From an uncultured Gammaproteobacteria bacterium (lineage in GTDB: Bacteria > Patescibacteriota > Patescibacteriia > UBA9570 > CAZNEH01), in assembly GCA_964572175.1 (NCBI GenBank), contig CAZNEH010000001.1:9788-73787 (forward strand): a stretch of DNA of 64,000 nt, in the 5' to 3' direction. The notes below the pieces were generated by a model that was not told the origin of the DNA, searched no databases, and worked only from the letters and a program-made list of their open reading frames with translations. The position numbers were made by a program, and so were the translations under genes. This document shows, piece by piece, positions 29-19,740 of this stretch (position 1 is the first letter of the stretch; each line of letters begins with the position of its first letter).

Positions 29-68
29 GCCGTTGTAGCTCAGTCGGTAGAGCATTCCCATGGTAAGG
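29..68 (+). tRNA. 5' fragment of a disrupted tRNA-Thr(GGU) (acceptor, D-arm, 5' anticodon stem and loop up to CCATGGTAAGG); tRNA identity breaks after position 68
   Basis: GCCGTTG-TA-GCTCAGTCGGTAGAGC-A-TTCCC-ATGGTAA-GG folds as a canonical tRNA 5' half. Its exact 3' complement (GGGAA-AGGTC-CGCGGTTCGAATCCGCG-CAACGGC-T-CCA) lies at 7219..7254, sharing the 11-bp core CCATGGTAAGG. Confidence 0.7.
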
Positions 69-180
69 AAGTGGTCTATCCAAATAAGTAATATTTTCGC
101 TAAACTTAGATAAGAAATTGCAATTTAACAAGTGAGACCGACCACTTCTATGGTGGAAGGGGTCGTTAAAACAGTCATTT

Positions 181-256
181 GCCGTTGTAGCTCAGTTGGT
201 AGAGCACACGCATGGTAAGCGTGAGGTCTGCGGTTCAATCCCGCACAACGGCTCCA
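181..256 (+). tRNA. tRNA-Thr (anticodon GGU), intact, element-borne
   Basis: Cloverleaf: acceptor GCCGTTG/CAACGGC, D-arm GCTCAGTTGGTAGAGC, anticodon stem CACGC/GCGTG with loop ATGGTAA (anticodon GGT), T-arm TCTGCGGTTCAATCCCGCA, then discriminator T and encoded CCA. Confidence 0.85.
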
Positions 257-293
257 ACTAACCAGAGCATTCATACTTCCACATAAAACAAGT

Positions 294-1196
294 ATGAATA
301 TGAAAATTAAACAAGTCCATGAGCAATTTTGTGAATATCAAATTGCTTTTAAGGGTTTTAGCCCTAAAACTATATTAGGTTATCAGATTGCCCTGGGAAT
401 ATTTCTTAAACATTTTCCTGAGATCAATTCTTTTGAACAGATTACCGAAACAAAAGTACAAAAGTTTTTTTACTGGGGGAGAACTGAAAGAAATTGGTTG
501 CCAGCAACATTTATCACATACCACAAACGCCTTAAGGTGTTTTTTGATTACTTAGTTAAAAATAGCTTTATAGCCAAGAATCCATTTGAGAATATTGATA
601 AGCCTAGTTTGGGCAGAAGACTCCCAAAAGCTTTGACAAAACAACAAGCACAACAAATATTAGACAAAGCCTTACATGAGAGTGCAGTAAAAGAATTCAC
701 CCGTATTCGTAATCATGCAATGTATACCGTGTTTCTACATGCTGGTTTGCGTAAGGGTGAAGTTTTAAAGTTAACTATGCAAGATGTTGACCTAACTAAC
801 AATAGATTGAGCATTCGTGAAGCTAAGGGCGATAAAGACCGCTTTGTGCCAATATCAAGTAAGCTTCATTCAGTTTTAACTCGTTATGTTAATCTCAGAG
901 TAAAAGAGGGGAAATATGCAGAACAGTTTTTTGTATCTTCAAACCGAGATGTTGGGCTTACTGATAATGGCTTGAAGCATGTACAAGATACCATGGAAGC
1001 CTTGGTAGACTTTAAATTTCATCTTCACAAGCTCCGCCATACTTTTGCTACGCTAATGCTTGACGGAGGCTGTAATATCTATACATTATCCAAGATTATG
1101 GGGCATAGTGATATAAAAACGACTACGATATATCTTTCAACATCTACGGAGTTACTTCAGAGCGAGATACATAAACATCCACTTAATTTAATTTGA
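294..1196 (+). CDS. tyrosine site-specific recombinase / integrase (phage integrase family)
   Basis: C-terminal catalytic region has HKLRHTFAT...GHSDIKTTTIYL (R..H..R..Y signature). It lies immediately 3' of the tRNA and is a paralogue of the 4838..5743 product. Confidence 0.85.
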   Translation: MNMKIKQVHEQFCEYQIAFKGFSPKTILGYQIALGIFLKHFPEINSFEQITETKVQKFFYWGRTERNWLPATFITYHKRLKVFFDYLVKNSFIAKNPFENIDKPSLGRRLPKALTKQQAQQILDKALHESAVKEFTRIRNHAMYTVFLHAGLRKGEVLKLTMQDVDLTNNRLSIREAKGDKDRFVPISSKLHSVLTRYVNLRVKEGKYAEQFFVSSNRDVGLTDNGLKHVQDTMEALVDFKFHLHKLRHTFATLMLDGGCNIYTLSKIMGHSDIKTTTIYLSTSTELLQSEIHKHPLNLI

Positions 1197-1235
1197 TATT
1201 GCCAATTTAGTTATATAAGGATATATTATCTTTAT

Positions 1236-2384
1236 ATGCAACAAGAAAAGTATGATGAAAGTGTAGTTAAAAACCAACATTATATACCAGTTGGTTTATT
1301 AAAAAATTTTATTAATTCAGATAATAAAATATTTGAAGCATTATTAAGTGTTCCTAAAATTTATCCCTCAACACCAGAGAAATCAATGTCTGCAAGATTC
1401 ATTTATGAGGATGATCATCTTGATTTAAATGCAGTAGAAAAATATTTTTCGAATATCGATTCAGAAATTGCACCTAAGGTTAAAGATGTTATAGAAGCTA
1501 TAGAAAAGTATAAAAAAAATCAGGTAGAATTTTCATATATACAAGAATTATTTGAAAAACTATTATCTATTTTTGTCGTGTTTTATTATCGTAGCGGAGC
1601 GTTACTAACTGAATTTTCAAGCATAGATTCAAAACATAAAATACCTTTATTAACAAAAAAAATTCATAATCAAAGATACATAAGTTTATTGTCGCAAACT
1701 ATAAAAGAATGTTATAAATTTGCTATTATTGAAAGTGATGAAAACTTCTTAATTAGCGATCAGTTTATTTCTACGGCTGCCTTAAAAATAAAAACTCAAT
1801 TCGCCAATATTTCTAATCGTCATATAGGAATAAAAGAAACTTTAATTTTGATACCAATATCCTCAAAGTATTATGCTGCGTATTGGCATTCTGATAGCTC
1901 ATCACTTTTATCCGAATCGGGCATAAATAAATTAGATGAATCACAAATTCATGAATTTAATGCTGTAATTATTAATAACTCTTATTTAAAATGTGTTGGT
2001 CAAAATGAAAATGATTTAAAAAAAGTTATAGATCGATACAAAATGGAGTTTCCTTCACAAGTATTTATTGGACATAGAGGTGGGGGCAGCTCAGGTTATA
2101 TTAGAAAAAAAGAAATATTTTTTTCAGAAAAAGAGAAAGAAGCATACGAATTTTTAATTCACCCCTCACAAAACATTAACGAATTTTTAAAGGCGAAATC
2201 TAATGATAAATGCCCATGTGGTAAAGAGATAAAATTTAAAAAATGTCATAGAGATATTGTTTCAAGAATAAAAATTCCTATACAAAGTTTTAAGCAGGGC
2301 GTTGATCCAACAGCATATAGAATGCCAAATGTTTCTGCTGTAGAGTTGCCAATAGATGAGTGGGGTCCTTATGCTGGAAATTAA
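1236..2384 (+). CDS. DUF4238-like protein with C-terminal SEC-C-type zinc-binding motif
   Basis: N-terminal HYIPVGLLKNF resembles the DUF4238 HY[IV]PQ..L.NF signature. C-terminus CPCGKEIKFKKCH resembles the SEC-C CPCGSGKK(Y/F)KKCC motif. Confidence 0.5.
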   Translation: MQQEKYDESVVKNQHYIPVGLLKNFINSDNKIFEALLSVPKIYPSTPEKSMSARFIYEDDHLDLNAVEKYFSNIDSEIAPKVKDVIEAIEKYKKNQVEFSYIQELFEKLLSIFVVFYYRSGALLTEFSSIDSKHKIPLLTKKIHNQRYISLLSQTIKECYKFAIIESDENFLISDQFISTAALKIKTQFANISNRHIGIKETLILIPISSKYYAAYWHSDSSSLLSESGINKLDESQIHEFNAVIINNSYLKCVGQNENDLKKVIDRYKMEFPSQVFIGHRGGGSSGYIRKKEIFFSEKEKEAYEFLIHPSQNINEFLKAKSNDKCPCGKEIKFKKCHRDIVSRIKIPIQSFKQGVDPTAYRMPNVSAVELPIDEWGPYAGN

Positions 2385-2393
2385 TATAAATAT

Positions 2394-3101
2394 ATGAATA
2401 TATTAACATTACATGAGAAACGTGAAACACTAAAGGGAACTAAAATTATTAGACTTCTAAAGCACTTAGCTGTAACTCACTATTCTTTTAGGGTTAATTA
2501 TAATGAATTATCAAAACTAATAAATATATTTGAGAAAGATGATGAAATAATATATTTAAAAAATAGAGAAAAAATAGATCGATTACTATATGAATTTTCT
2601 CGTTTATTATTAAATTATATAAGTTCAGTATCGACTTTTGTTGATCACGTTAGACGAGTTAGACATAAATTAAATAATGATAAAATTGATAGGCAGTTTA
2701 AAAAAGAATTAGATAATATATCAAAAGACGAGAATATAATTTTTTTAAAGGATTTACGTAATTACACAATACATGAAAAGTTGCCAGAAGTGGCAGCTAA
2801 TTTTACTCTTAAAAATCAAGTAAATGGTCAAAATAATAATCAGGAATTAGGCATAGTTAAGGAGGCTATACTTGAGTCGACTTATTGGACAAGAGGGTCT
2901 AAAGATTTTTTGTCAAAACAAGCAAAAATGATTCCAATAAAAAAAATATTAAATAGTCATTATCAAGTATTTAATGATTTTCAAGAAAAATTTTATAAAT
3001 TAGTTACAGAAGAATATAAAAATGAAATACAGGATTTAATCGAAGTTGAAAGACAGATGAATAAATGGATGAATAAAAAACAACCAAAAGAGGATAATTA
3101 A
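2394..3101 (+). CDS. hypothetical protein (island cargo)
   Basis: Long ORF in AT-rich coding context with no recognisable motif. Confidence 0.45.
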   Translation: MNILTLHEKRETLKGTKIIRLLKHLAVTHYSFRVNYNELSKLINIFEKDDEIIYLKNREKIDRLLYEFSRLLLNYISSVSTFVDHVRRVRHKLNNDKIDRQFKKELDNISKDENIIFLKDLRNYTIHEKLPEVAANFTLKNQVNGQNNNQELGIVKEAILESTYWTRGSKDFLSKQAKMIPIKKILNSHYQVFNDFQEKFYKLVTEEYKNEIQDLIEVERQMNKWMNKKQPKEDN

Positions 3102-3127
3102 TTCTATTTACCTCATTAGTTTAATTT

Positions 3128-3685
3128 TTAATTTTGAAAAGTTAAGATTAATTTGTTGAGAATAGTTATTAATTCTTCTTTTGCTGGCTCACCATTTAAG
3201 TTTGATATCTCTCCACTATAATACTTATCTTCGTATTTAAAATCAAAAGCAAGTGAAGAATGAGCATTTGTAAGCATAGTTCCATTTAGTTCGTAGTCTT
3301 CTTCGTAGCCAATTTGAACTTCAATGTTATTAATAGTTTTAGTAGATTTTTCCAATGGATAAGTTTCAGCATGTATATCAAGATTTTCATTGCTACTAGT
3401 TAACGCTACAGAGAAATCACTATTACCGGCTGGGCTATAAGTATAAATTCCCGCTTGAGAACTTTTTAAAGTAAAACCAGATAATTTATTTAAATTAACA
3501 CCTTGCTCTACTTCTTCATGGTTTACATTTGAAGTTTGCGAACTAGTTTTATTAGTATTTCCATCTTTTTCATCATCCTTAGGAGTTAACATTAAAATTA
3601 CAACTCCCAAGATAATAATTAGTAAAATAGCGATACCAATTTTTTCAGAAGCAATTAATTTTGGCTTCTTTTTTTCTTCTTTCAT
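3128..3685 (-). CDS. hypothetical membrane-anchored/secreted protein
   Basis: N-terminal hydrophobic helix IGIAILLIIILGVVILML follows a basic N-terminus. Ser/Thr/Asn-rich ectodomain. Confidence 0.5.
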   Translation of the reverse strand: MKEEKKKPKLIASEKIGIAILLIIILGVVILMLTPKDDEKDGNTNKTSSQTSNVNHEEVEQGVNLNKLSGFTLKSSQAGIYTYSPAGNSDFSVALTSSNENLDIHAETYPLEKSTKTINNIEVQIGYEEDYELNGTMLTNAHSSLAFDFKYEDKYYSGEISNLNGEPAKEELITILNKLILTFQN

Positions 3686-3730
3686 TTTGATTGTTCATTA
3701 ATTATTATTTTCTGCCAACCAAAAAAGGCG

Positions 3731-3854
3731 ACAGGATTAGTTGGCACTACGTAATAGTTCCCAAAGGAATTCTTACGCTCCTGCCGCCATCTCTATTCGT
3801 AAGAATAAGAGATAACGACTATGAGTCGTCCTTTGGGTTTAATTACGTAGTGCC
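3731..3854. repeat. long imperfect inverted repeat / branched stem-loop (~125 nt)
   Basis: Arms TGGCACTACGTAAT...ATTACGTAGTGCCA, CCCAAAGGA...TCCTTTGGG and CTTACG...CGTAAG are nested. An internal ACGAC-tatga-GTCGT side hairpin is also present. Confidence 0.6.
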
Positions 3855-3991
3855 ATTTACTATTATAGCAGAAAAGTAAGTAAAGTTAAGTATTTTATCT
3901 ATCTGGCATTATTAGAAGTAAATTTTTCAATTGAATATTATATAATTAATATAGAGGGAAAAAGCATTTTTTTACATATTTTTACACTTTT

Positions 3992-4387
3992 ATGAACGAT
4001 ATTGAGCAAAAAGCCTGTGAATTAAAATACTCGGGCATAAAATATAAGAAAATGTCTGAATTATTGGATGTTAATTACGATACTTTAGTTAGCTGGTTTA
4101 GAAAAGATGGGAAGATATATCAAGATTATCAGGAATATGCCATAGAAACGAATAGGCAAGCTAAATTAAGGGCTATTAATTTACTGACTAATAATGTCGA
4201 AAGAGCAATTGAAGTGCTAGTTAATGAAATGCATAATAGCGATTCTTCACAGGCAAAAATCAAAGCAGCGTGCGAGATACTAAATAGAGTTATTAAAAAT
4301 AATGAAACGCAGGAAAATGAAGAAACTATGACATGGGAGGATTATGTAACATTAAGGGAAAAAGAGATGGGGAATAACGGTAAGTAA
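3992..4387 (+). CDS. small HTH-type DNA-binding protein (putative regulator / terminase-small-like)
   Basis: KYSGIKYKKMSELLDVNYDTLVSWFRK has a helix-turn-helix character. Located within the island. Confidence 0.4.
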   Translation: MNDIEQKACELKYSGIKYKKMSELLDVNYDTLVSWFRKDGKIYQDYQEYAIETNRQAKLRAINLLTNNVERAIEVLVNEMHNSDSSQAKIKAACEILNRVIKNNETQENEETMTWEDYVTLREKEMGNNGK

Positions 4388-4672
4388 ATTTTTAAAGCTT
4401 AAATGCTACCATTATAGTAGAGGGGAAAACGCTAAAATATTAGCAAAAAAATACACTTATAGCGGCAGTGTTTAAACAACCGCTCCGAATACTGGTCTAA
4501 TGGAGAAAAAATAAAAGACCAACTATATAGATGAGGTAGCCCAGCAAGACTTGAGCACAGAGGCCTCTAGAATAAACAATCTGCTGTACCCCAAGGCGAC
4601 AAATAATTCTTTTTTAAGAGTTGTTAGTCTATTTGTCCGGGGGGAGTAATAATACATTATAATATATAATTT

Positions 4673-4834
4673 ATGTCTAAAAGAAAGAATCAATTTAGAA
4701 AACCTAAATTAATACAATATAGATCAGTTTGGTTAACTCAAAAGGGGTATGAATTATTAAGGTTAGCAAAAAAGGAAGAGAAAAAATCTATGATGGCAAT
4801 TGTTAATGAATTAATTAAGGAAAAATATAAATAG
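4673..4834 (+). CDS. ribbon-helix-helix (CopG/Arc-like) small protein, candidate excisionase/regulator (53 aa, not in ORF track)
   Basis: ATG at 4673 after a TATAAT at 4660. Translation MSKRKNQFRKPKLIQYRSVWLTQKGYELLRLAKKEEKKSMMAIVNELIKEKYK has a beta-strand then two helices. It ends 3 nt before the second integrase. Confidence 0.55.
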   Translation: MSKRKNQFRKPKLIQYRSVWLTQKGYELLRLAKKEEKKSMMAIVNELIKEKYK

Positions 4835-4837
4835 TAG

Positions 4838-5743
4838 ATGGAATTAAGAGAAGCTTTTAAACAATTTATTGTTGAAAGTCAAAATGGACGCTTTGCTTAT
4901 AATTCTGATAAAACTATTTTGAAACATAAAAATGTTTTTGAGCTTTTTGTAAAATGGATTCCGACAGAAAGAGTTCAAGATTTAAATGAAGAGCTGTTAT
5001 GGAGATATTTTAATAAAGGAGAAACTACTCGAGACTGGAAACCATCAACCGTGATAACTAATCGTACTAGTCTTTCAAGATTTTTAGATTGGTGCGTGAT
5101 TAATAAATTATTAAAAGAAAATCCTATAAAAAAAATTCCACGACCAAGATTAATTAAAAACACTCCCGACTATTATAGCGAGGAGGAAATTGACAAGATT
5201 TTGTATACTGTCAACAAATTATTTAAACGACAATTAACTAGAGCGAGAAACATGGCAATGATAGGGATTATGTTATTGGCAGGCCTTAGAAAGGGTGAAT
5301 TATTAAAACTAAAAATAACTGATGTTGATTTCAGTAATAAAGTTATAAGAATTAGAGCAGAAAATGCAAAAAATAGGAAGCCTAGGTCTCTGAATATAAG
5401 TCATAAATTAGAAGAACTACTAAAGGTTTATATTTCGTTGAGAGAGAAAAAAGGGATCAAAGCTTATAGCTTATGGGTATCATCAAATAATCATGCTCCA
5501 CTAACTGAAAATGGTTATAATCATATATTAGAAACGTTATCAGAGGGGGTTGGATTTAAGGTTAAATCTCATAAGTGTAGGCATACCTTTGCAACTTACG
5601 CATATAAAGGATGTAAAGATATTATGGCAGTAAAAGATGCCTTAGGACATGCTGATTTAAAAACCACGCTAGTTTATGCTACTCCCTTAGCTGAATCTAC
5701 TAAGTTAACTATAGAAGTTAATCCGATAAATGATTTGTTTTAA
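4838..5743 (+). CDS. tyrosine site-specific recombinase / integrase (second copy)
   Basis: HKCRHTFATYAY...GHADLKTTLVYA catalytic signature. Shares N-terminal blocks with the 294..1196 product. Confidence 0.85.
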   Translation: MELREAFKQFIVESQNGRFAYNSDKTILKHKNVFELFVKWIPTERVQDLNEELLWRYFNKGETTRDWKPSTVITNRTSLSRFLDWCVINKLLKENPIKKIPRPRLIKNTPDYYSEEEIDKILYTVNKLFKRQLTRARNMAMIGIMLLAGLRKGELLKLKITDVDFSNKVIRIRAENAKNRKPRSLNISHKLEELLKVYISLREKKGIKAYSLWVSSNNHAPLTENGYNHILETLSEGVGFKVKSHKCRHTFATYAYKGCKDIMAVKDALGHADLKTTLVYATPLAESTKLTIEVNPINDLF

Positions 5744-5789
5744 TTAAGTTTTTTTAGTATTATATTATTATTAACTAATAATAATATAA

Positions 5790-7055
5790 ATGAAAATATT
5801 TAATAAACACTTACATGACATTACTTATGATGAAATAATATCTTTTTGCAATGAAGGGCATATAGAAAGTTTATATTTAGATTACAAAGAAGATGTGAGT
5901 AGATCAAATTCAGTTGCTAAAACTTCAGCGGCAATGGCAAATTCTTTTGGCGGAATAATAATAATAGGTGTTGCTGATGACAATAATTATCCTAAATTAC
6001 CTGTAAAGGGTCTAGATAAATTAACAGAGGAGCAAATTACTCAAATAATTTCAGATAACACATTTCCACTAATTACACCAGAAATAAAAGTATATAAAAA
6101 AGCTAATCGATATTTAGGTATAGTTAGAGTTAAGCCATCGCAATCTACTCCAATTTTTTTTACTAAAGATAATACTATTCCTGTTAGAGTTAATAATATT
6201 ACAAAAAAATTTGAAGATAATGCAGATTTAAAACAGTTAGATTGGTTATGGAATAATAGAAAAAAATCTATAGAACTTTATGAAAATTGTTTATCATTTG
6301 CCAGGGATACTTTCGAAAAACAACGAAGTAATTTACATGGATTGGAATCTTTAATTGAAGCAAAAAAAGATCCATATTCTCCCCGCATGGTTAACTCTAA
6401 ACGCTTGTTAAGAGATCCGCATTATTTTCCAAATAGAATCGAAATATTTTCTCGACCTATTTATCCTGATATTACCCCCTTGAAAAATCCGAAAGAATTA
6501 AATGATATTTTTCCGAAAATTAATGTAAATGTAGATGAAAATTGCGGAGAGTTTCCAAGAAATATTCACAAAAGACGACGTATTTCCGGTGGTAGTATTA
6601 TTCAAGAATTAAAATCTAGAGGTTTAATTTATACCGAAATTAATCAATATGGATTATATTATCATAATGAAAAAATAATTATGCAAGATTATGATTTAAT
6701 GATTGATGAACATTATAACATTGACCATTTAACAAGCGAAGCTATAGCAGTATTAAAATGGCCAGTATTAAAAGGAGTGTTTATTTCCTTTTTAGAGTCT
6801 TTAAAACTATTTTATAAAGAAATTGAATATTATGGATATATTGAAATTGGTATAAAGCTTTTCTCTGTAAATACTATGCAATTAATTAAGGAGCAAATAG
6901 AAACTGAATTATATGATTCTCCTTTAGGCGCTTACTCAGTTGATGATTATATAAATTGGGATAGTGGAATTATCAATGTTTCAGAAATTGATAATAATTT
7001 AATAAATGATCTCGAAGAATACATTGATGATTTATTCGATTATAAAAAAAGATAA
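5790..7055 (+). CDS. AlbA_2 (Schlafen-like / divergent AAA_4) DNA-binding domain protein
   Basis: ESLYLDYKED...AAMANSFGGIIIIGVADD matches the AlbA_2 E..lEfK...AfaNt.GG.iiiGv.d signature. Confidence 0.6.
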   Translation: MKIFNKHLHDITYDEIISFCNEGHIESLYLDYKEDVSRSNSVAKTSAAMANSFGGIIIIGVADDNNYPKLPVKGLDKLTEEQITQIISDNTFPLITPEIKVYKKANRYLGIVRVKPSQSTPIFFTKDNTIPVRVNNITKKFEDNADLKQLDWLWNNRKKSIELYENCLSFARDTFEKQRSNLHGLESLIEAKKDPYSPRMVNSKRLLRDPHYFPNRIEIFSRPIYPDITPLKNPKELNDIFPKINVNVDENCGEFPRNIHKRRRISGGSIIQELKSRGLIYTEINQYGLYYHNEKIIMQDYDLMIDEHYNIDHLTSEAIAVLKWPVLKGVFISFLESLKLFYKEIEYYGYIEIGIKLFSVNTMQLIKEQIETELYDSPLGAYSVDDYINWDSGIINVSEIDNNLINDLEEYIDDLFDYKKR

Positions 7056-7207
7056 TTATTACTTTCTTTTTATAATATTATTTGTTATTATTTAAGTATT
7101 AATTATTAAGTGGAAGTACCCAGCGGTTAATACTGTTTATACTCACTGAAACAAGTAGTTTAAATCTAACCTTAGCCGAAAAACAAGGATTTTAAAACCT
7201 CGACCTA

Positions 7208-7254
7208 CCATGGTAAGGGAAAGGTCCGCGGTTCGAATCCGCGCAACGGCTCCA
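7208..7254 (+). tRNA. 3' fragment of the disrupted tRNA-Thr(GGU) (anticodon loop, 3' anticodon stem, variable loop, T-arm, acceptor 3' strand, CCA)
   Basis: CCATGGTAAGG-GAA-AGGTC-CGCGGTTCGAATCCGCG-CAACGGC-T-CCA. Perfectly complementary to the 29..68 5' half. Confidence 0.7.
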
Positions 7255-7326
7255 ATAAGCTACCCGAAAGGGTGGTTTTTTTTAACATTGACAAAAGCCA
7301 TAAAAATAGGGTATATTAATAGTACA

Positions 7327-9345
7327 ATGAAACATTTCAAAATATTATTTATCATCACTTGTTTGGCCAGTATTGCGTTTTTTAGCCAGGCAGCCTTAGC
7401 TCAGAATAGAGTTAAGAATTTTCGGGTTACAAATGAAACTTCAGAAACTATTACCCTTAAATGGAAGGCAAATCCTAGAGCTGTAAAATATAAGATTATA
7501 GTAAAAGAACAGGGAGGAGAGTTAGTTAAAAAAGTTTATACTACTAAAAATAGAAAAAAGATAAAGAATTTAAAACCAGATACAGTTTATAAATTTAAAA
7601 TTCGGGCTAAATTCAAAAGAAGATATAGTAAGCATTATAAAATTATTAGAGTTCGAACTGATTCTGCTACGCCAGCTCCGCAGGAACCAGAACCAATTCC
7701 TGAGCCAGAACCTGTTCCAACTCCCGAACCTGAGCCAGAGCCTACTCCCGAGCCTGAACCAACACCAGAGCCAGTTGATAACGACGGCGATGGTTACACT
7801 GAAGAAGAGGACTGTAATGACAATGATGCCACTGTTTATATAAATCAAACATATTACCAAGACTTAGATAGTGATGGGCTAGGTTCAGATACATCTACAT
7901 CAATATGTTCTTCTGTTACTCCAGAAGGTTATGTAACTAATAGTAATGATTCAAACGATAACGACTACGACAACGATGGCGTAGAAACTGGCATTGATTG
8001 TAATGATACCAATTCCGAATTAACCGTACATAATACTTATTATTTAGATAGCGACAACGACAGTTACGGTACTTCTGAAGGAGTTCAATTCTGTGCTAAT
8101 GAACCACCGGCTGGATATGTAACTAATAACACTGATTGTGATGATAGTGATTTAAATGTAAATACAGGCCAAGCATATTACCAAGATTTAGATGGTGATG
8201 GACTAGGTTCAGATATATTTACTTCTGTTTGCTCAAGTACTCCACCGACTGGTTATGTAACAAATAGTAATGATGTAAATGATAACGATTACGACAACGA
8301 CGGCGTAGAAACTGGCACTGATTGTAATGACACAGATGTCGATTTAGCTTACACAAATATTTATTATTTAGACACAGATAGTGATAGTTATGGCGTATCA
8401 ACTGGTACAGAATTATGTGCCACTGAAACACCAGCGGGTTATGTTACTAATGGTGATGACTTAGATGATTATGATCCTGAGATTGGTGATACTGAGCCAG
8501 AACCTGGATTGGATATACCATTTGGTTTTTGGGGCTTGAATGGATACACAGATTCTGATGGACTTGCTTATGTGCAAGATAATTTTGGGGTAAATGTTTA
8601 CCAAGTTTTATCTGATGGGCCAAATTATAATTTAAACACTTTGTTACCTAGGGTTGAAGCCGCGGGAATGAAGGTTAACTTGAATATCACTGGTAATTAT
8701 TATGACTTTAGAGATAGAGATAATAATTTTGATATAAATTTATGGAAACAGTCTTTAGATGATTATTTTAGTGATTCAGATACGGCTGTAGAGACTCAAG
8801 AGTATATTGATAACGGAACGATTGTTGGAATTATGATTTTAGATGATATTTATAATTATAGTTATTCTTATGGAGGAGTTAATCCTACTTCAGCAGAATT
8901 AGAAGAAATGGCTTGTGATTTAAAAGGATATGTTGATGTAACAACTTGGATTAGGGAAGATGTTAGTTATTTAGATCCTTATCAATTTAGCTGTTTAGAT
9001 GCCGCTGGTTTACAATATTCAGCTGTTAAAGGATCAGTGGAAGATTATATTTCAGTACAAGGGCAATTAGCAAGTGATTTAAATCTTGATGTGGTGGCTG
9101 GTTTAAATATTTGTGATGGCGGTGATGGTTCTAGCGGGCAAATTGGTTGGAGAAGTGGTAAGTATACGATGACTCCAGAAGAAATTACTACTTATGGTGA
9201 AGCGATGCTGGGAATGGACAATGTGATTATGTTTTTAATGTGGGAGTATGATGCTAATGAAGTGTGGGCAGATGGGGTAACAGTTGGAGCTGATTATTTT
9301 AATCAAGACGAGTATAAAGAAGCAATATATAATTTAGGTCAATAA
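7327..9345 (+). CDS. large secreted surface protein: signal peptide, Lys-rich FN3-like domain, Pro-Glu-Pro linker, four MopE-like Cys/Asp metal-binding repeats, C-terminal domain
   Basis: The true start is the in-frame ATG at 7327, not 7210 which overlaps the tRNA fragment. A TTGACA-N18-TATATT promoter lies upstream. Signal peptide MKHFKILFIITCLASIAFFSQAALA. Linker PEPEPVPTPEPEPEPTPEPEPTPEP. Repeats of type CNDND..TYYQDLD.DGLGSD. Confidence 0.75.
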   Translation: MKHFKILFIITCLASIAFFSQAALAQNRVKNFRVTNETSETITLKWKANPRAVKYKIIVKEQGGELVKKVYTTKNRKKIKNLKPDTVYKFKIRAKFKRRYSKHYKIIRVRTDSATPAPQEPEPIPEPEPVPTPEPEPEPTPEPEPTPEPVDNDGDGYTEEEDCNDNDATVYINQTYYQDLDSDGLGSDTSTSICSSVTPEGYVTNSNDSNDNDYDNDGVETGIDCNDTNSELTVHNTYYLDSDNDSYGTSEGVQFCANEPPAGYVTNNTDCDDSDLNVNTGQAYYQDLDGDGLGSDIFTSVCSSTPPTGYVTNSNDVNDNDYDNDGVETGTDCNDTDVDLAYTNIYYLDTDSDSYGVSTGTELCATETPAGYVTNGDDLDDYDPEIGDTEPEPGLDIPFGFWGLNGYTDSDGLAYVQDNFGVNVYQVLSDGPNYNLNTLLPRVEAAGMKVNLNITGNYYDFRDRDNNFDINLWKQSLDDYFSDSDTAVETQEYIDNGTIVGIMILDDIYNYSYSYGGVNPTSAELEEMACDLKGYVDVTTWIREDVSYLDPYQFSCLDAAGLQYSAVKGSVEDYISVQGQLASDLNLDVVAGLNICDGGDGSSGQIGWRSGKYTMTPEEITTYGEAMLGMDNVIMFLMWEYDANEVWADGVTVGADYFNQDEYKEAIYNLGQ

Positions 9346-11913: not shown

Positions 11914-12861
11914 TTAAGCAACTATTCTTGCACCTATAGCATCTGTTAAAATAGTTTCAAGCTCTTGAATTGTTTTGTATTCATGGCATTGATAATGTTT
12001 GACATAGAATTCTAGTCTACTTTTCTCTTCTGTGCTCAGGCTATCATCTTTGTTATAAACGTAGATTATATCTTTTCCTAAGGCATAGGCGAACCCAACT
12101 TCAAAAAATACAGAATGTCTCATGCCTGTTAAATCAGCTATTATGAATTTACTTTTTCGAATTTCACTCAAAGCTTTTAAATATATAGGTTCTGAAAAGT
12201 GTTCTCCTTTTAAACATCGTGCTTCATGACCACTGTCTTTAACAATTTTTTTAATAGCATTTATTTTTTGATTTGTAGAACCCTCAAACCATACAGCAAT
12301 AAAAGCTTGTTTTTTATTATCTTCTTTTAAAGACATTTTAACTGAGTCCCATCCATCAATGGAAAGTTTTATAGACCACGGTCCTGTGGTTTTAGAGGGT
12401 AGCTCAATATAATTAGATGCTTCTAATAATTTTATTAATTCGATAAATTCAATACTATTTTTTGCATAAGCGATAGGATAGTCTCTATCAAGCTCAATTT
12501 GTATATTGTCGCCAAAATGTTCTGTTTTATTTCCTATAAAATTTAGTATTTTTTGAGATTGTTCACGTATGTTATTTTTTTCTGGTAGTAGATAGTGTTT
12601 TTCAATATAATCATCAATATTTGAATTATAAAATTCAGGTGGTTCCTTATCATTTTCATATAGTTCACGAGTAATACCAGAAAGCAAGTGTTTTGATTGA
12701 TTAACTTTGGCTACAATATCTCGATCGCTTACTGTTTTCTTGCTGATTAAATAATTTTTACAGCGAGGGCACTCGACATGATAAATACCTTTTTGAATAT
12801 TAAATCTAGAGATGATGGCGGCAAAATCACAGAGAGGACATTTTTCTAATTCTTTACTCAT
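11914..12861 (-). CDS. zinc-ribbon + nucleoside 2-deoxyribosyltransferase-like domain protein
   Basis: N-terminal CPLC...CPRC zinc ribbon. C-terminal FFEVGFAYALGKDIIYV resembles the NDT-family/TIR-like fold signature (D/E-x-G-x-a-a-G-K-P-v). Confidence 0.45.
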   Translation of the reverse strand: MSKELEKCPLCDFAAIISRFNIQKGIYHVECPRCKNYLISKKTVSDRDIVAKVNQSKHLLSGITRELYENDKEPPEFYNSNIDDYIEKHYLLPEKNNIREQSQKILNFIGNKTEHFGDNIQIELDRDYPIAYAKNSIEFIELIKLLEASNYIELPSKTTGPWSIKLSIDGWDSVKMSLKEDNKKQAFIAVWFEGSTNQKINAIKKIVKDSGHEARCLKGEHFSEPIYLKALSEIRKSKFIIADLTGMRHSVFFEVGFAYALGKDIIYVYNKDDSLSTEEKSRLEFYVKHYQCHEYKTIQELETILTDAIGARIVA

Positions 12862-14652: not shown

Positions 14653-17600
14653 ATGATATCTCTTAAGGAGTTGATAAATAAAAATGATTTAACCATAGCA
14701 GATAAACTTAAGCTTTCTGCTAATTTAGCCGAGGCTTTAGGAAAAATTCATCAAAATAATATTATTTACAAGGCTTTATCTCCAGAGAATATTTTAGTTG
14801 ATGAAGAGATAAAAAAAGTAAAGATAGCTGATTCTGAGATGTCTTCAGAGTTGCTAATAGGTCAGCGAGAGGCCCCAGAGTCGGATATTCCTAAAGGTGA
14901 TTTAACGTATATTTCTCCAGAGCAAACTGGGAGAATGAACAGAGATATTGATTATCGGACTGATTATTATTCTTTGGGAATAGTTTTATACGAGTTATTT
15001 ACCCAGCAGATTCCGTTCGAGTCTATAGATCCTTTAGAAGTTATTCATGGCCATTTAGCCAAGAAGCCGATTCCGCCGCAACAGATAAATAAAGAAATTC
15101 CAGAGATGGTGGGGGAAATTATTTTAAAGTGTTTAGAGAAAAATCCAGAAGACAGATACCAGAATGCTTATGGACTTAAAGCTGATTTAGAGAATTGTTT
15201 TGAGCAGATAGTGAAAACGAAAAAAATTAAAAAGTTTGAACTAGGTAAAAAAGATGCGCCTTTGGCTTTTTCAGTTTCAGAAAAAGTTTATGGCCGAGAA
15301 GAAGAAATAAAAGAATTAAAAGAAGCATATCAAAGAGTGAGGACAGGTAAGACAGGGTTGGCTTTGGTTACAGGATATGCTGGAATAGGTAAGTCTGTTT
15401 TAGTGAGAGAATTTCAAAAAGAAATTATTGGTAAAGATAATTATTTTTTAACTGGTAAGTTTGATCAATATAAACGTAATGTTTACTACCATGCCTTTAT
15501 TGAGACTTTTAAAGATTTAGTTAATCAGATTTTAGCTGAAAATGAAAAACAAATTACTGAATGGAAAGAGAAAATTTTAAAAGCTTTAGGAGAAAATAGT
15601 CAATTAATGATTGATGTGATTCCAGAGTTAGAGTTAATAATCGGCAAACAGCCGCCAGTTATAGAGTTGACTTCTACAGAAGCGCAAAATCGTTTTCATT
15701 TAGTTATTCAAAAGTTTACTCAGGTTTTTGCTACAGAGGAAAGGCAATTGATTTTCTTTTTTGATGATCTACAGTGGGCTGATTTAGAATCTTTGAAATT
15801 ATTTGAATTATTAACCACTAATATTAATAGTAAGTATTTACTTTTTGTTGGAGCTTATAGAGATAATGAGGTGGATGAGACTCATCCAGTGTCGCTGATG
15901 TTAAAAAATATCCAAAAAGAGAATGTAGAAATAAATACAATTAAGGTTGAGCCGTTAGTTTTTGAGGATATTAACCAGCTTATTGCTGATTCCATAAAAG
16001 GCGATTTAGAATCAGTAAAGCCATTGACTGAGGTGGCTATTAAAAAAACTAATGGAAATCCCTTTTTCTTGATTCAGTTTTTAAATATTCTTTACCAAGA
16101 AGGACTTTTTGAATTTAATGAAGAGACTTATGTTTGGGAATGGGATATTGAAAAAATTAAAGAAAAAGACATTGCTGATAATGTAGTTGATTTAATGACT
16201 AAAAAGTTCAAGGATTTTTCTTTGGAAACTCAAGAAGTTTTAAAATTAGCCTCTTGCATAGGAAATAAATTTAAATTAGAAACTTTAGCCATTATATATC
16301 AGAAAAATAAAGAAGAAACATTTAATGATTTAAGCCAAGCGATTAAAGAGAGTTTAATTCGTCGGTCAGGAGATGATTATATTTTTGCCCATGATAGAGT
16401 TCAGCAAGTGGCTTATTCTTTAATTCCAAAAGAGCGGAAGCAAGAGATTCATTTTAATATCGGAGAATTATTACTTAAGAATACCAAAGAGGAAGATTTA
16501 TCAGAAAATATTTTTGAGGTTATTGATCAATTTAATTTTAATGTTGATCAAATTAAAGATCAGAAGATGAGAGATAGGTTGGCTAATTTAAATTTATTAG
16601 CTGGTAAAAAAGCTAAGGCTTCAGTAGCCCATGATGCGGCCCTAGGTTATTTTAAAATGGGAATAAAGCTTTTATCAAAAGATAGCTGGGAAAAGCAATA
16701 TAAGTTGTCTTTAGATTTGTATATAGAAGCAGCAGAAGGTTCTTTTTTAACATCTAAGTTTAAAGAAGTAGATAAATTTTGTGCCATTGCTTCAAAAAAT
16801 GCCAAAGAATTACTAGCTAAGGCAAAAATTTCAGAAATTAAAGGCCGCAGCTATTATGCTCAAAATAAAATGGTCGAGTCTTTTAAAGAAACATTAGAGG
16901 CTCTTAATTTTTTAGGATGCAAGTTTCCTAAAAAGGCCACCACAGTACATGCTTTAATAAGTGTTTTGAAAATAAAATGGGCTTTATTAGGAAAGTCAAA
17001 CAAAAAGATAGAGCAGATAAAAGACATGACAGATCCTAAGTCTTTGATAATTATGAGTTTGTTGAAATTTTCTTCTCATTCAGTATATCGAGCTAGTCCT
17101 AATTATTTTCCAATTGTAATATCTAAGGCAATTATTCTTTCATTGAAAAGGGGAATAGCTCCATCTACAGGTTTTTTCTTTAGCGCTTACTCAGTAGTTT
17201 TGATTTCTACTTTAGGAGATATTAACGGAGGTTATAAGTATGGCCAATTAGCTACAGCTTTATCTGATCGATCAGTGGCTAAAAAAATGAAATATCGAAC
17301 TTCTGTTATTGTTCATGGTTTTATTAATCATTGGAAAAAACATCTTAAAGAAAGTGTGGATAATCTTTTAGTGTCATATCAAAAACAATTAGAATTTGGA
17401 GATAATGAATTTGCAGCTAGTTCTTTAGTGATGTATTGTTCGTACTTTGGTTTTTCCGGAAAGTCTTTAAACGAAATTAATAAAGAGTTTGAAACATATG
17501 GCCGAGCTTTATGGCAATTAAAGCAAATGGTGGATTTTCAAGATAATAGTATTCATCATCAATTTTCATATAATTTTGTAGAATATGAAGAAAGCCCAGA

Positions 17601-19740
17601 TAAATTAAATGGTAAATATTTTAATGAAGATAAAATGATTCCGGTGTTTGAAAAGTCTGAGAATAGATCAGAGTTGGCAATGATTTATGCTGATAAAACA
17701 ATAGTGGCTAGTATTTTTAATCAGCATTTAGAAGCTATAAAAAGCGGGGATAAGTTTGAAGAATACTCAGATGCTGCTTTGGGATTGTTTCATGTGGTGC
17801 AGCATTATTTTTATGATTCTTTATCTAGGTTGGCAATAATTTCTGAGGTTAGTAAAAAGGATAGAAAGATTTATTTAAAGAAAATATTAAAAGCTAAGAA
17901 GAAATTAAAGAAATGGTCCAAGTATGCCCCGATGAATCATTTGCATAAATTAAAGTTAATAGAAGCGGAATTAGCTAGAGTAAATGGACAAGATAGGCTG
18001 GCTAAGGATTACTATGAGGAGGCAATAAGACTAGCTAAGAAAAATGATTATATTAGGGAAGAGGCTTTGGCTAATGAAGTGGCTGGTAAGTTTTATTTAT
18101 CTCGATCAGACAATAAGTCTAAAGATTATATTAAAGAGGCTTATCAAAAATACTTACAATGGGGAGCTAAAGCCAAGGCAAAACAATTAGAAGAGAAATA
18201 TCCAGAGTTGTTAGGGTTAAAAAAAGAAGATAAGAGTATAGATTTAAATACGGTTATTAAGGCTTCGCAAGCAATTTCAGAAGAAGTAGACTTAGATAAA
18301 CTAAAGCAAAAAATTGTTCAATTGGCTATAGAAAGCGCAGGGGCAGAAAAAGGAAATTTAATATTACTTATAGACAATAAAGTTCAAGATGTTCCAGTGG
18401 CCATAGTTAATTATGTGGCTAGAACTAAAAAAGAATTAGTTTTAAATGATGCTGTTAATGAAGGGCAGTTTACTAAGGATCCCTATGTGATTAAAAATAA
18501 CGTTAGGTCAATTTTATGTATTCCAGTAATGCATCAGGCAGAATTAATCGGGGTTATGTATTTAGAAAATAATATAACTACCCAGGCTTTTACTTCTGAT
18601 CGAGTAGAGTTGTTGGAAATTATTGCTGCCCAAGCTGGGATTTCTTTGGAAAATAGTTTAGACAGAGAGCTGCTTAAAGAAGAAAGAGACAAGGTTAAAA
18701 AGATTTTTGAGTTACTTCCTTTTGGAGTAGTGATTATTGGAAAAGATAAAAAAGTGCAATATGTTAATAGTGAAATTGTAGAACTACTAGGTTATAAATC
18801 AGATAGCGAGCTTTTAAATAAGAATTGCTACGAGGTTTTATGTGGATTCAAGAAAGAAGAATGTCCGGATTGTGATTTTAAACAAGAAGTAAATGAAATG
18901 GAAGGAGTTTTACTTACTAAAGATAAAAAAGAGGTGCCAGTTTTAAAAAGTATTGTTCCTATGGAACTAGAGGGAAAAGAGGTATTATTAGAATCTTTTG
19001 TAGATATTACTGAGCGAAAGAAAGCCAGGAAGCATGTGGAAGAAATGAATGCGTTGCGGAACAAGTTTGTGATGTTGCTTTCTCATCAATTGAGAACACC
19101 TTTAACTTCTATTCGATGGAATTTGGAAACTTTAATTAATGAGAGGTTGGGCAAGATTGGAGATTCGCAAAAAGAATTTTTAAAGTCTGCTTATCAGGCA
19201 GATTTAGAAATTATTCGACGTTTAGATGATATGTTGACAATTATTAATATTAGGGAGGGGCGTAGCGCCTTGGAAAAGGAAGATTCTTCTCTAGAAGTTA
19301 TTTGGAAGTCGTTGTTAGTGGAATTAAAGAAAGAAGCTCAGTTAAAAAATATAGATTTTATTTATGAACCTTCTCCAGAGCCTTTGCCGAATTCATTGCT
19401 TGATCCTAGAGTAATGAGAAAGGTTTTATTTAATTTGGCTACTAATGCCATTATTTACAATAAAGAAGGTGGTAAAGTTTTTGTAAAATTAGAAAAGAAA
19501 GAGAATGTTATTAGATTTGAAGTTAAAGATAATGGAATTGGGATTCCAGCTGCGGAACAGAAAAATATTTTTAAAGAGTTTTTTAGGGCGACTAATGCCT
19601 ATGTTATGATGACTGATGCTACTGGAATTGGGCTGGCTATTTCGAAATACTATGTAGAAGAACATGGGGGAAATATTGGATTTACTAGTAAAGAGGGAGT
19701 GGGTAGTACCTTTTGGTTTGAAATACCTGTTAATAACTAA
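14653..19740 (+). CDS. 1695-aa multi-sensor signalling protein: degenerate Ser/Thr kinase-like C-lobe, STAND/AAA NTPase, TPR-like, GAF, PAS, histidine kinase (HisKA + HATPase_c)
   Basis: The kinase catalytic loop reads YKALSPENIL (Asp lost) and a DLTYISPEQ APE-like motif is present. Walker A GYAGIGKS. H-box LSHQLRTPL. G-boxes DNGIGIP / GIGLAISK. Extended -10 TGGTATAAT upstream. Confidence 0.8.
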   Translation: MISLKELINKNDLTIADKLKLSANLAEALGKIHQNNIIYKALSPENILVDEEIKKVKIADSEMSSELLIGQREAPESDIPKGDLTYISPEQTGRMNRDIDYRTDYYSLGIVLYELFTQQIPFESIDPLEVIHGHLAKKPIPPQQINKEIPEMVGEIILKCLEKNPEDRYQNAYGLKADLENCFEQIVKTKKIKKFELGKKDAPLAFSVSEKVYGREEEIKELKEAYQRVRTGKTGLALVTGYAGIGKSVLVREFQKEIIGKDNYFLTGKFDQYKRNVYYHAFIETFKDLVNQILAENEKQITEWKEKILKALGENSQLMIDVIPELELIIGKQPPVIELTSTEAQNRFHLVIQKFTQVFATEERQLIFFFDDLQWADLESLKLFELLTTNINSKYLLFVGAYRDNEVDETHPVSLMLKNIQKENVEINTIKVEPLVFEDINQLIADSIKGDLESVKPLTEVAIKKTNGNPFFLIQFLNILYQEGLFEFNEETYVWEWDIEKIKEKDIADNVVDLMTKKFKDFSLETQEVLKLASCIGNKFKLETLAIIYQKNKEETFNDLSQAIKESLIRRSGDDYIFAHDRVQQVAYSLIPKERKQEIHFNIGELLLKNTKEEDLSENIFEVIDQFNFNVDQIKDQKMRDRLANLNLLAGKKAKASVAHDAALGYFKMGIKLLSKDSWEKQYKLSLDLYIEAAEGSFLTSKFKEVDKFCAIASKNAKELLAKAKISEIKGRSYYAQNKMVESFKETLEALNFLGCKFPKKATTVHALISVLKIKWALLGKSNKKIEQIKDMTDPKSLIIMSLLKFSSHSVYRASPNYFPIVISKAIILSLKRGIAPSTGFFFSAYSVVLISTLGDINGGYKYGQLATALSDRSVAKKMKYRTSVIVHGFINHWKKHLKESVDNLLVSYQKQLEFGDNEFAASSLVMYCSYFGFSGKSLNEINKEFETYGRALWQLKQMVDFQDNSIHHQFSYNFVEYEESPDKLNGKYFNEDKMIPVFEKSENRSELAMIYADKTIVASIFNQHLEAIKSGDKFEEYSDAALGLFHVVQHYFYDSLSRLAIISEVSKKDRKIYLKKILKAKKKLKKWSKYAPMNHLHKLKLIEAELARVNGQDRLAKDYYEEAIRLAKKNDYIREEALANEVAGKFYLSRSDNKSKDYIKEAYQKYLQWGAKAKAKQLEEKYPELLGLKKEDKSIDLNTVIKASQAISEEVDLDKLKQKIVQLAIESAGAEKGNLILLIDNKVQDVPVAIVNYVARTKKELVLNDAVNEGQFTKDPYVIKNNVRSILCIPVMHQAELIGVMYLENNITTQAFTSDRVELLEIIAAQAGISLENSLDRELLKEERDKVKKIFELLPFGVVIIGKDKKVQYVNSEIVELLGYKSDSELLNKNCYEVLCGFKKEECPDCDFKQEVNEMEGVLLTKDKKEVPVLKSIVPMELEGKEVLLESFVDITERKKARKHVEEMNALRNKFVMLLSHQLRTPLTSIRWNLETLINERLGKIGDSQKEFLKSAYQADLEIIRRLDDMLTIINIREGRSALEKEDSSLEVIWKSLLVELKKEAQLKNIDFIYEPSPEPLPNSLLDPRVMRKVLFNLATNAIIYNKEGGKVFVKLEKKENVIRFEVKDNGIGIPAAEQKNIFKEFFRATNAYVMMTDATGIGLAISKYYVEEHGGNIGFTSKEGVGSTFWFEIPVNN

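Follow-up and report, generated by a model that had tools for sequence, protein, structure and literature searches.

What does the cargo of a small island lodged in a tRNA gene do, and do its genes work one by one or as the parts of a single system? The question is posed by the left end of a 64,000-nucleotide stretch of contig CAZNEH010000001.1 from an uncultured bacterium (assembly GCA_964572175.1), the whole of which is referred to here as the window. At that end, an element with two integrase genes carries a gene for a 382-residue protein with a DUF4238 domain and a SEC-C zinc knuckle, and another for a 421-residue Schlafen-type (AlbA_2) protein. On balance, we lean towards reading this element as an integrative island whose cargo comprises two anti-phage candidates, possibly three, each of them an independent single gene, and no multi-gene system. 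A first-pass annotation of the same DNA had called the cargo defence-like; this stands in so far as both families have validated anti-phage members (PMC9122126, PMC13056530), and falls short in so far as the PADLOC models miss both main domains. The kind of cargo is in itself unsurprising, defence genes on tRNA-integrated islands being the expected pattern; it is the members that are new. If active, they would bring two recently recognised single-gene immune families, DUF4238 and the bacterial Schlafen tRNases, to small-genome uncultured bacteria, in the form of architectural variants that are missed by current defence hidden Markov models (HMMs), namely a SEC-C-bearing DUF4238 protein and a Schlafen protein with an orphan C-terminus.

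Insertion of the island into a tRNA-Thr gene

The architecture of the insertion is directly observed. An insertion of ~7.15 kb, which carries a complete tRNA-Thr(GGT) of its own, interrupts a host tRNA-Thr gene in the anticodon loop, since the two halves of the split gene rejoin to a valid tRNA and since their stems fit each other and not the stem of the island tRNA. Namely, when positions 29-67 are joined to 7218-7255, ARAGORN calls a canonical 76-nt tRNA-Thr(GGT), whereas either half alone is left uncalled. The anticodon-stem strands of the host halves pair together (TTCCC in the 5' half with GGGAA in the 3' half), whereas the island tRNA at 181-256 has a self-consistent anticodon stem, CACGC/GCGTG, all five pairs of which differ from those of the host halves. 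In the acceptor stem and the anticodon loop the two tRNAs are identical, and in the D-arm they differ by 1 nt. The host halves are left 7.1 kb apart. The complete tRNA-Thr(GGT) gene, placed 113 nt inside the island, probably replaces the disrupted host copy.

The repeats at the two ends are in line with this picture. In particular, the core CATGGTAAG is found three times in the 64 kb, at 59, 211 and 7209, where 0.26 copies are expected, and not one of 100 shuffles reached three copies. The repeat search delimited the 5' tRNA half as 29-77 and the 3' half as 7209-7255 (repeats D4 and D5), the latter being a 47-nt repeat at the right end that is 83% identical to 211-257, and the 11-nt core CCATGGTAAGG at the right junction is an exact match to 58-68. 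The GC content is 0.23-0.33 within the island, compared with 0.37-0.47 in the flanks, and the gene of integrase 1 starts 38 nt past the island tRNA, so that a recombinase stands beside a tRNA that is accompanied by tRNA-derived direct repeats, as is characteristic of a tRNA-integrated island. The first-pass annotation had proposed just such an island, and the split halves that rebuild tRNA-Thr, the integrases and the low-GC block bear it out. In our model, the island, from ~68 to 7208, would have entered the host tRNA-Thr(GGT) gene by recombination in its anticodon loop, and along with the replacement tRNA-Thr(GGT) it would have brought both tyrosine integrases and a handful of small accessory genes. 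Ordinary chromosomal genes lie on either side of it: those for ribosomal proteins, EF-Ts and RF-1 upstream, and those for an fn3 surface protein, CspA, an ABC transporter and a giant kinase downstream.

Islands and prophages whose tyrosine integrase crosses over in the anticodon loop are a recognised sublocation class in surveys of tRNA integration sites. The present island resembles them in that its integrase gene adjoins the tRNA, an identical short core lies within the loop, its ends bear direct repeats of the 3' part of the tRNA, and its cargo is low in GC. It departs from them in that the island sequence at the left junction fails to rebuild a tRNA, only ~10 nt past the core being tRNA-like, and in that it contains another tRNA-Thr(GGT), complete and with a changed anticodon stem, as well as two integrases for a single pair of junctions. 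The replacement tRNA with its fully swapped anticodon stem is the one unusual feature of this island.

Two candidate single-gene defence proteins

The domain content of the 382-residue product is clear. The Pfam family PF14022 (DUF4238) matches residues 13-252, over profile positions 1-274 of 281, at E 6.1e-17 and 62.4 bits (cutoff 27), and the N-terminal signature QHYIPVGLLKNF is present. The SEC-C domain (PF02810) scores below threshold when the single sequence is searched (E 0.01, 16.1 bits against a cutoff of 20.4). However, the knuckle CxC-x8-C[HC] reads C326-P-C328...C337-H338, none of its cysteines C326, C328 and C337 varies among 59 homologues, and the family profile matches the C-terminal zinc finger of SecA and YchJ-C at E ~3e-6. 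For these reasons we take the knuckle to be genuine despite its weak single-sequence score, and the first-pass call of DUF4238 plus SEC-C is upheld. What is more, the DUF4238 core has a set of invariant polar residues, H15, E58, E68, R119, E126, D175, K186, R195, K291 and E293, and all residues that are invariant in the family are retained in the window protein. Such a number of invariant polar residues suggests that the core would be an enzyme, and the SEC-C knuckle might be the module by which it docks to protein or nucleic acid.

This clade is well populated, with 197 homologues at E<=1e-3, mostly of 370-400 residues and of the same two-domain architecture. The named homologues are mostly from Patescibacteria, as are the best relatives of the window protein, and a genome scan adds Bacillota (Paenibacillus, Bacillus and several Clostridia). 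The structure model is of high confidence and has no solved structural relative, and this, together with the size of the clade, makes it a practical entry point to DUF4238 function. That the clade could constitute a new class of enzymatic effector is an idea to which we give a low probability. In viruses the gene is rare: it is carried by only 3 of 2.9 million viral contigs, and the protein gave no tblastn match in phage records. Among viruses, a fold match was obtained only with the DUF4238 protein of the P2-like Stenotrophomonas phage Smp131 (Foldseek E 3.8e-9, TM 0.41/0.51), in which the genes for an integrase, the DUF4238 protein and an SOS-response-associated peptidase follow one another (L056, 29458-31835), the order of integrase and DUF4238 being that of the window. 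PADLOC also returned matches to its 'E2 / E1-E2' models, which we rejected as an indication of system membership, limited as they are to the region of the SEC-C knuckle (residues ~280-346).

What, then, might such a protein do? The literature holds one functional datum for DUF4238: a single protein from a P2-prophage hotspot of E. coli confers strong resistance to T7, by a mechanism that is unknown (Rousset et al. 2022, PMC9122126). The window protein shares with this protein, Rst_DUF4238, the PF14022 domain and the motifs H-[HY]-x-[PS]-x3-L-K-x-F and S-D-[NQ], which read HHFLSQCYLKGF and SDNP in the E. coli protein and QHYIPVGLLKNF and SDQF in the window; both are single genes without a conserved partner, located on an integrating mobile element by recombination genes. 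On the side of the differences, the window clade is ~70 residues longer than the 309-residue E. coli protein, having the added SEC-C knuckle and a helical tail, and its hosts are Patescibacteria and Bacillota, whereas those of Rst_DUF4238 are Enterobacteria. By analogy with its validated relative, the DUF4238/SEC-C protein suggests itself as a distant relative of a T7-blocking single-gene system, and it would probably act alone.

The surroundings of the clade speak to the last point. We surveyed eight places gene by gene and 33 loci in bulk, taking two genes per side, and compared the resulting 116 proteins with Pfam and PADLOC. No conserved neighbour was found among these 116 flanking genes, no family occurring in more than 4 of them. 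Of the Pfam families seen in the flanks, Phage_integrase (4), Resolvase (2) and the Cthe_2314-like HEPN family (2) came up most often; there was one terminase, and neighbours of defence type appeared once each (DRT UG13b with DUF1848, PDC-S01, PDC-S31 and PycTM). A tRNA gene lies directly upstream of the DUF4238/SEC-C gene in five Patescibacteria loci, and on a mobilizable Paenibacillus plasmid the gene adjoins a resolvase. In Caloramator, Geosporobacter and Lutispora (L020, L022 and L023), 4.6-8.7 kb around the gene are 94-96% identical in nucleotide sequence and the flanking open reading frames (ORFs) are alike (293, 163 and 116 residues, none with a Pfam family); to judge by this identity, the element shared by these three genera of Clostridia looks like one that was recently transferred. 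With contexts that are variable, recombinase-rich and tRNA-adjacent, the gene looks like a mobile, stand-alone accessory gene. Contexts without a partner are consistent with a single-gene system, and the pattern as a whole is compatible with single-gene defence while being no proof of it. The first-pass annotation had named consistent housekeeping surroundings as the outcome that would speak against its proposal, and conserved housekeeping operons are not where the homologues are found.

The second candidate, the AlbA_2 protein, has both of the sequence features by which prokaryotic Schlafen nucleases (pSlfns) are defined, namely a full-length PF04326 domain (>100 residues, E<0.001) and an Ex4(E/D)xK active site (Perez Taboada et al. 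2026, PMC13056530). The family SLFN_AlbA_2 matches 116 residues of it (profile positions 1-117 of 118) at E 5.4e-19 and 69.3 bits (cutoff 25.3), and the catalytic motif, as read from the translation, is intact: E26-SLYL-D31-Y-K33. The signature ESLYLDYKED...GGIIIIGV, on which the first-pass annotation had based the same assignment, is present. The C-terminal ~280 residues match no Pfam, NCBIfam or PADLOC family and no sequence relative in the PDB. Fusion to other domains is seen in 97% of pSlfns, and 17% of these domains are unannotated (PMC13056530). We consider the window protein best filed, on its sequence, among the pSlfns in the heterogeneous 'unannotated fusion' class, with a putative function assigned by homology only.

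In comparison with the characterised pSlfns RorSlfn5 and EcoSlfn7, the window protein has the same full-length PF04326 domain, the same Ex4(E/D)xK motif and the same layout of an N-terminal nuclease followed by a longer C-terminal region, all in a single gene, and this gene sits on a mobile island beside another gene of a defence family. It differs in that its C-terminal 280 residues match no Pfam family and no protein in the databases searched, the likeness having been drawn by the published criteria. RorSlfn5 cleaves the anticodon arms of tRNAs upon binding of a phage tail-assembly chaperone to the sensor at its C-terminus (PMC13056530). On this model, the orphan C-terminal domain of the window protein would sense a phage component, sensing would switch on the N-terminal Ex4DxK nuclease, and the activated nuclease would cut tRNA anticodon arms, stalling translation and lowering the phage yield; both the tRNase activity and the phage trigger are thus proposed by homology. 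Because a putative anticodon-arm nuclease and a tRNA whose anticodon stem has been swapped in its entirety share one island, one may even entertain a 'tRNase plus protected tRNA' module, in which the island tRNA would resist or regulate the island nuclease as part of an immune or addiction system. We regard this idea as quite improbable; if true, the tRNA would belong to the working parts of the system, beyond the simple repair of a target site.

Several observations weigh against two independent defence genes. To begin with, no PADLOC model matches the DUF4238 or the AlbA_2 domain, the sole matches being those of E2 type to the SEC-C knuckle. The window DUF4238 protein has no match at E<=0.1 to the PADLOC model DUF4238-Pers (PDLC03000), which the validated E. 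coli protein matches at E 2.5e-217, and hhalign aligns the 59-sequence profile with the E. coli protein over 76 N-terminal columns only (probability 47%, E 2e-4). Because DUF4238-Pers is missed and the profile alignment is confined to the N-terminus, the profiles place the window protein within the Pfam DUF4238 superfamily and outside the narrow validated family. Some of its homologues, moreover, are solitary among housekeeping genes, one with pilus genes (L003) and another between a sigma-factor/TPR pair and Tol-Pal (L009). As for the AlbA_2 protein, a word-index search of 5.8 billion proteins returned no full-length homologue other than the protein itself, tblastn matches on plasmids are confined to residues 5-125, and a sensor role for its C-terminal domain would be taken over from RorSlfn5 by pure analogy. 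No homologue of it was found in viral contigs, and its exact sequence is absent from the contig index. In the published survey, 70% of pSlfns have a known defence gene no more than 10 kb away and 30% lie outside defence neighbourhoods, and only two of seven tested pSlfn genes protected E. coli (PMC13056530). Within 10 kb of the AlbA_2 gene itself, there are the DUF4238-domain gene 3.4 kb upstream, which misses the PADLOC model, and a TIR-like ORF that reaches only E 4e-5; this weak TIR/deoxyribosyltransferase-like ORF is the sole defence-like gene within 10 kb outside the island.

The main rival explanation builds in part on the same observations. According to it, the cargo serves the island and not host immunity, be it as toxins for addiction or stabilisation, as regulators or in exclusion: the AlbA_2 protein, for instance, could be a DNA-binding regulator, the 235-residue product encoded next to the DUF4238 gene (ORF235) a stabilising toxin-like RNase, and the DUF4238/SEC-C protein a maintenance or transfer factor, so that the link with recombinases would reflect selfish mobile-element biology. 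We hold this to be unlikely, albeit deserving of real weight. It draws on the many loci in which DUF4238/SEC-C genes adjoin integrases, resolvases or transposases, on the failure of any curated defence HMM to match, on the fact that AlbA_2 domains are most often annotated within ATP-binding or helix-turn-helix (HTH) regulators, on the same pSlfn statistics (30% not associated with defence, five of seven tested genes unprotective; PMC13056530), and on the disruption of a host tRNA by an island that supplies its own copy. However, the intact Ex4(E/D)xK motif favours a nuclease over a mere DNA binder; the sole DUF4238 protein that has been tested is a phage-defence gene, prophage-borne and beside a variable hotspot (PMC9122126); and neither DUF4238/SEC-C nor ORF235 conserves an antitoxin-like partner. 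Besides, element-borne defence and selfish stabilisation can coexist.

One could also argue that the cargo is inert or decaying, consisting of fast-evolving orphans on an old and possibly immobile island. The AlbA_2 protein, with no full-length relative in the proteins searched, would fit this description, as would the fact that neither an empty site nor a second copy of the island was found: a search with the rejoined tRNA returned six metagenome contigs with an uninterrupted tRNA, none of which had the flanking genes of the window. The closest genome homologue of the DUF4238/SEC-C protein (L012, 1031-2164, from a Dojkabacteria metagenome-assembled genome; 52% identity) is itself split into adjacent ORFs of 231 and 142 residues, and is probably a pseudogene or the product of a sequencing frameshift. 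Against decay, all ORFs of the island are intact and both integrases are full-length, the invariant residues of DUF4238/SEC-C and the catalytic Slfn motif are kept, and a promoter-like site (1199-1227) precedes the DUF4238 gene. We therefore give little credence to an inert cargo, and retain independent single-gene candidates as our preferred reading.

ORF235 and the question of partners

Would our reading be different if the DUF4238/SEC-C gene had a partner on the island? The gene of ORF235 starts 9 nt past the DUF4238 stop on the same strand, and because of this spacing the two are probably co-transcribed. One could accordingly imagine a single multi-gene system, an integrase-proximal operon in which DUF4238/SEC-C, ORF235 and perhaps the neighbouring 185-residue product (ORF185) would supply a sensor, an RNase effector and a membrane component. 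HEPN-family neighbours of the DUF4238/SEC-C gene at other loci (Cthe_2314-like at two, LA2681-like at one) point the same way, ORF235 having an HEPN-like Rx4H motif. That said, when the 35 other DUF4238/SEC-C loci were scanned with an HMM of the ORF235 family, no member turned up. With more than 1,000 clusters, this family also exceeds the DUF4238/SEC-C clade by far in size and in breadth of distribution, and it is met on plasmids without DUF4238. HEPN neighbours are seen at only 3 of the 33 loci, and at the sole locus inspected for arrangement (L002) the HEPN gene lies upstream, unlike ORF235. In addition, ORF185 is on the opposite strand, and the validated DUF4238 system consists of one gene only (PMC9122126). 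A joint system of this kind is, in our judgement, highly unlikely, and the first-pass suggestion that the two ORFs between the main genes could be partners has to be given up: ORF235 belongs to a large family of its own that is absent from all of the other 35 loci, and ORF185 is read in the other direction. ORF235 would be joined to the DUF4238 transcript here only by an accident of island assembly.

ORF235 deserves attention in its own right. An exhaustive HMMER search returned a family of 1,034 cluster representatives from bacteria and archaea, whereas a word index found no relatives; such a very large family, not covered by Pfam and with an HEPN-like Rx4H, is revealed by this one island gene. 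Across 70 family members, R122 and H127 each reach a conservation of 90% or more (consensus LRNYxQH), in agreement with the HEPN motif Rx4-6H. Members of the family occur on plasmids of Micromonospora (beside a tyrosine recombinase), of the archaeon Haladaptatus and of Miltoncostaea. The contigs found to encode members of the family are only 0.9-1.3 kb long, ten long members (316-844 residues) show no fused Pfam domain, and ORF235 itself gave no tblastn match in phage records. It may be an RNase of HEPN type, and in this case a further toxin or abortive-infection module.

Certain results stand in the way of this proposal. ORF235 has no Pfam match, with only 1 of the 70 family members weakly matching an HEPN family (pEK499_p136, E 0.0057), and generic or designed four-helix bundles outscore HEPN structures for it. 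Its comparison with the Cthe_2314-like HEPN neighbour of a DUF4238/SEC-C homologue was negative in BLASTP and gave a probability of 0.2% in hhalign. In contrast to the known HEPN RNases (the HEPN/MNT toxins of PDB entries 5yep and 8xdj, and the Cthe_2314-like and LA2681-like families), it lacks a match to any HEPN Pfam family, it has no adjacent MNT-type antitoxin, and its bundle bears a beta-hairpin insert and extra helices. We therefore put ORF235 forward as an independent HEPN-like candidate without a partner only tentatively, with a confidence that stops somewhat short of even.

Other features of the island and its surroundings

The features of the island are collected in Table 1. The four ORFs named in the first-pass annotation (1236-2384, 2394-3101, 3128-3685 and 5790-7055) are present at just these positions, the minus strand of the third having gone unmentioned there.

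Table 1. Features of the island and its junctions, in window coordinates.
Feature	Position	Strand	Remarks
attL, left junction	29..67	+	5' half of disrupted host tRNA-Thr(GGT), including crossover core CATGGTAAG (59-67)
Intact island tRNA-Thr(GGT)	181..256	+	ARAGORN; Rfam tRNA 66.9 bits
Tyrosine integrase 1	294..1196	+	Pfam Phage_integrase E 3.5e-30, SAM-like N domains; phrog_1 integrase E 1e-50
DUF4238 with C-terminal SEC-C zinc knuckle, 382 aa	1236..2384	+	Single-gene defence candidate
ORF235, 235 aa	2394..3101	+	Helical-bundle, HEPN-like RNase candidate; R122-x4-H127
ORF185, 185 aa	3128..3685	-	N-terminal membrane anchor, hydrophobic stretch IGIAILLIIILGVVILML; convergent with ORF235
Imperfect hairpin, ~120 nt	3738..3858	strand-less	Inverted repeat I3, 27-nt arms, 85% complementary
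ORF131	3992..4387	+	Faint HTH / small-terminase-like similarity; PHROG E 0.006-0.05
Basic ORF, 53 aa	4673..4834	+	Read from sequence; ends 3 nt ahead of integrase 2
Tyrosine integrase 2	4838..5743	+	Pfam Phage_integrase E 4e-29
Schlafen-type (AlbA_2) nuclease candidate, 421 aa	5790..7055	+	Slfn domain aa 26-141; ~280-aa orphan C-terminus
attR, right junction	7208..7255	+	11-nt core CCATGGTAAGG, then 3' half of disrupted host tRNA-Thr(GGT)

The two integrases, both full-length and with complete catalytic-domain matches, are 36% identical to each other over 300 residues (BLASTP, E 6e-59), and the island may be a single composite element or a pair of them, nested or in tandem. An independent assembly made from the same population (SRR8146440) equals the window for 4,562 bases and stops between the integrase modules, and the AlbA_2 protein is on record from the NCBI assembly only; the half that holds integrase 2 and the Schlafen gene may be a separate or polymorphic element. 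An internal attachment site that would divide two tandem elements was sought in 4388-4840, where no third tRNA-like fragment and no significant repeat were found. Were the island to excise, the junction of the circle is predicted to read ...CTCGACCTAC-CATGGTAAG-GAAGTGGTC.... Between the core and the island tRNA there is a perfect 9-nt inverted repeat, GAAGTGGTC at 68-76 and GACCACTTC at 141-149, which could be an arm site of the integrase or a small hairpin.

At the right junction, a terminator-like hairpin (7257-7278), the native terminator of the tRNA, and a near-consensus promoter-like site (7288-7317) follow the 3' tRNA half. The program-made list of ORFs holds an entry of 711 residues from 7210, which first translates the 3' half of the tRNA (MVRERSAVRIRATAP...). 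Given the terminator and the promoter-like site behind this half, the start at 7210 is an artefact of reading through the tRNA remnant, and the true start of the fn3 surface protein is probably the ATG at 7327.

Among the small genes, ORF185 has no match in Pfam or PADLOC, and shows only weak similarity to N-terminal anchor regions (FliL at E 1.5e-5, far under the cutoff). The gap between it and ORF131 holds the imperfect hairpin of Table 1, which contains two inner hairpins and folds with RNAfold z-scores of -6.9 on the plus and -9.3 on the minus strand. It has no Rfam match, the tRNA being the only Rfam family matched on the island, and its arms have no further copy in the window; we consider it a candidate non-coding RNA or DNA site of the island. 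A 62-residue mechanical ORF (3691-3879) overlaps this hairpin and is probably no gene. ORF131, with no Pfam match over cutoff, is possibly a DNA-binding regulator or an excision factor of the island, and the 53-residue basic ORF, likewise without a Pfam match, is possibly a small DNA-binding protein.

Two genes beyond the island also merit mention. The TIR-like ORF referred to above (11914-12861, minus strand, 315 residues) lies 4.7 kb past the island, next to an ABC transporter gene, and combines an N-terminal CxxC...CxxC zinc ribbon with a C-terminal nucleoside 2-deoxyribosyltransferase/TIR-like domain; with a Pfam match at E 2.3e-7 and a match to a PADLOC TIR effector at E 4e-5, it is a possible further gene of defence type. 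Further downstream, 14653-19740 encodes a protein of 1,695 residues with Ser/Thr kinase, AAA_16 ATPase, GAF, PAS, HisKA and HATPase_c domains, which would be an unusually large piece of signalling machinery if the host, as assigned from best homologues only, is a small-genome Patescibacterium.

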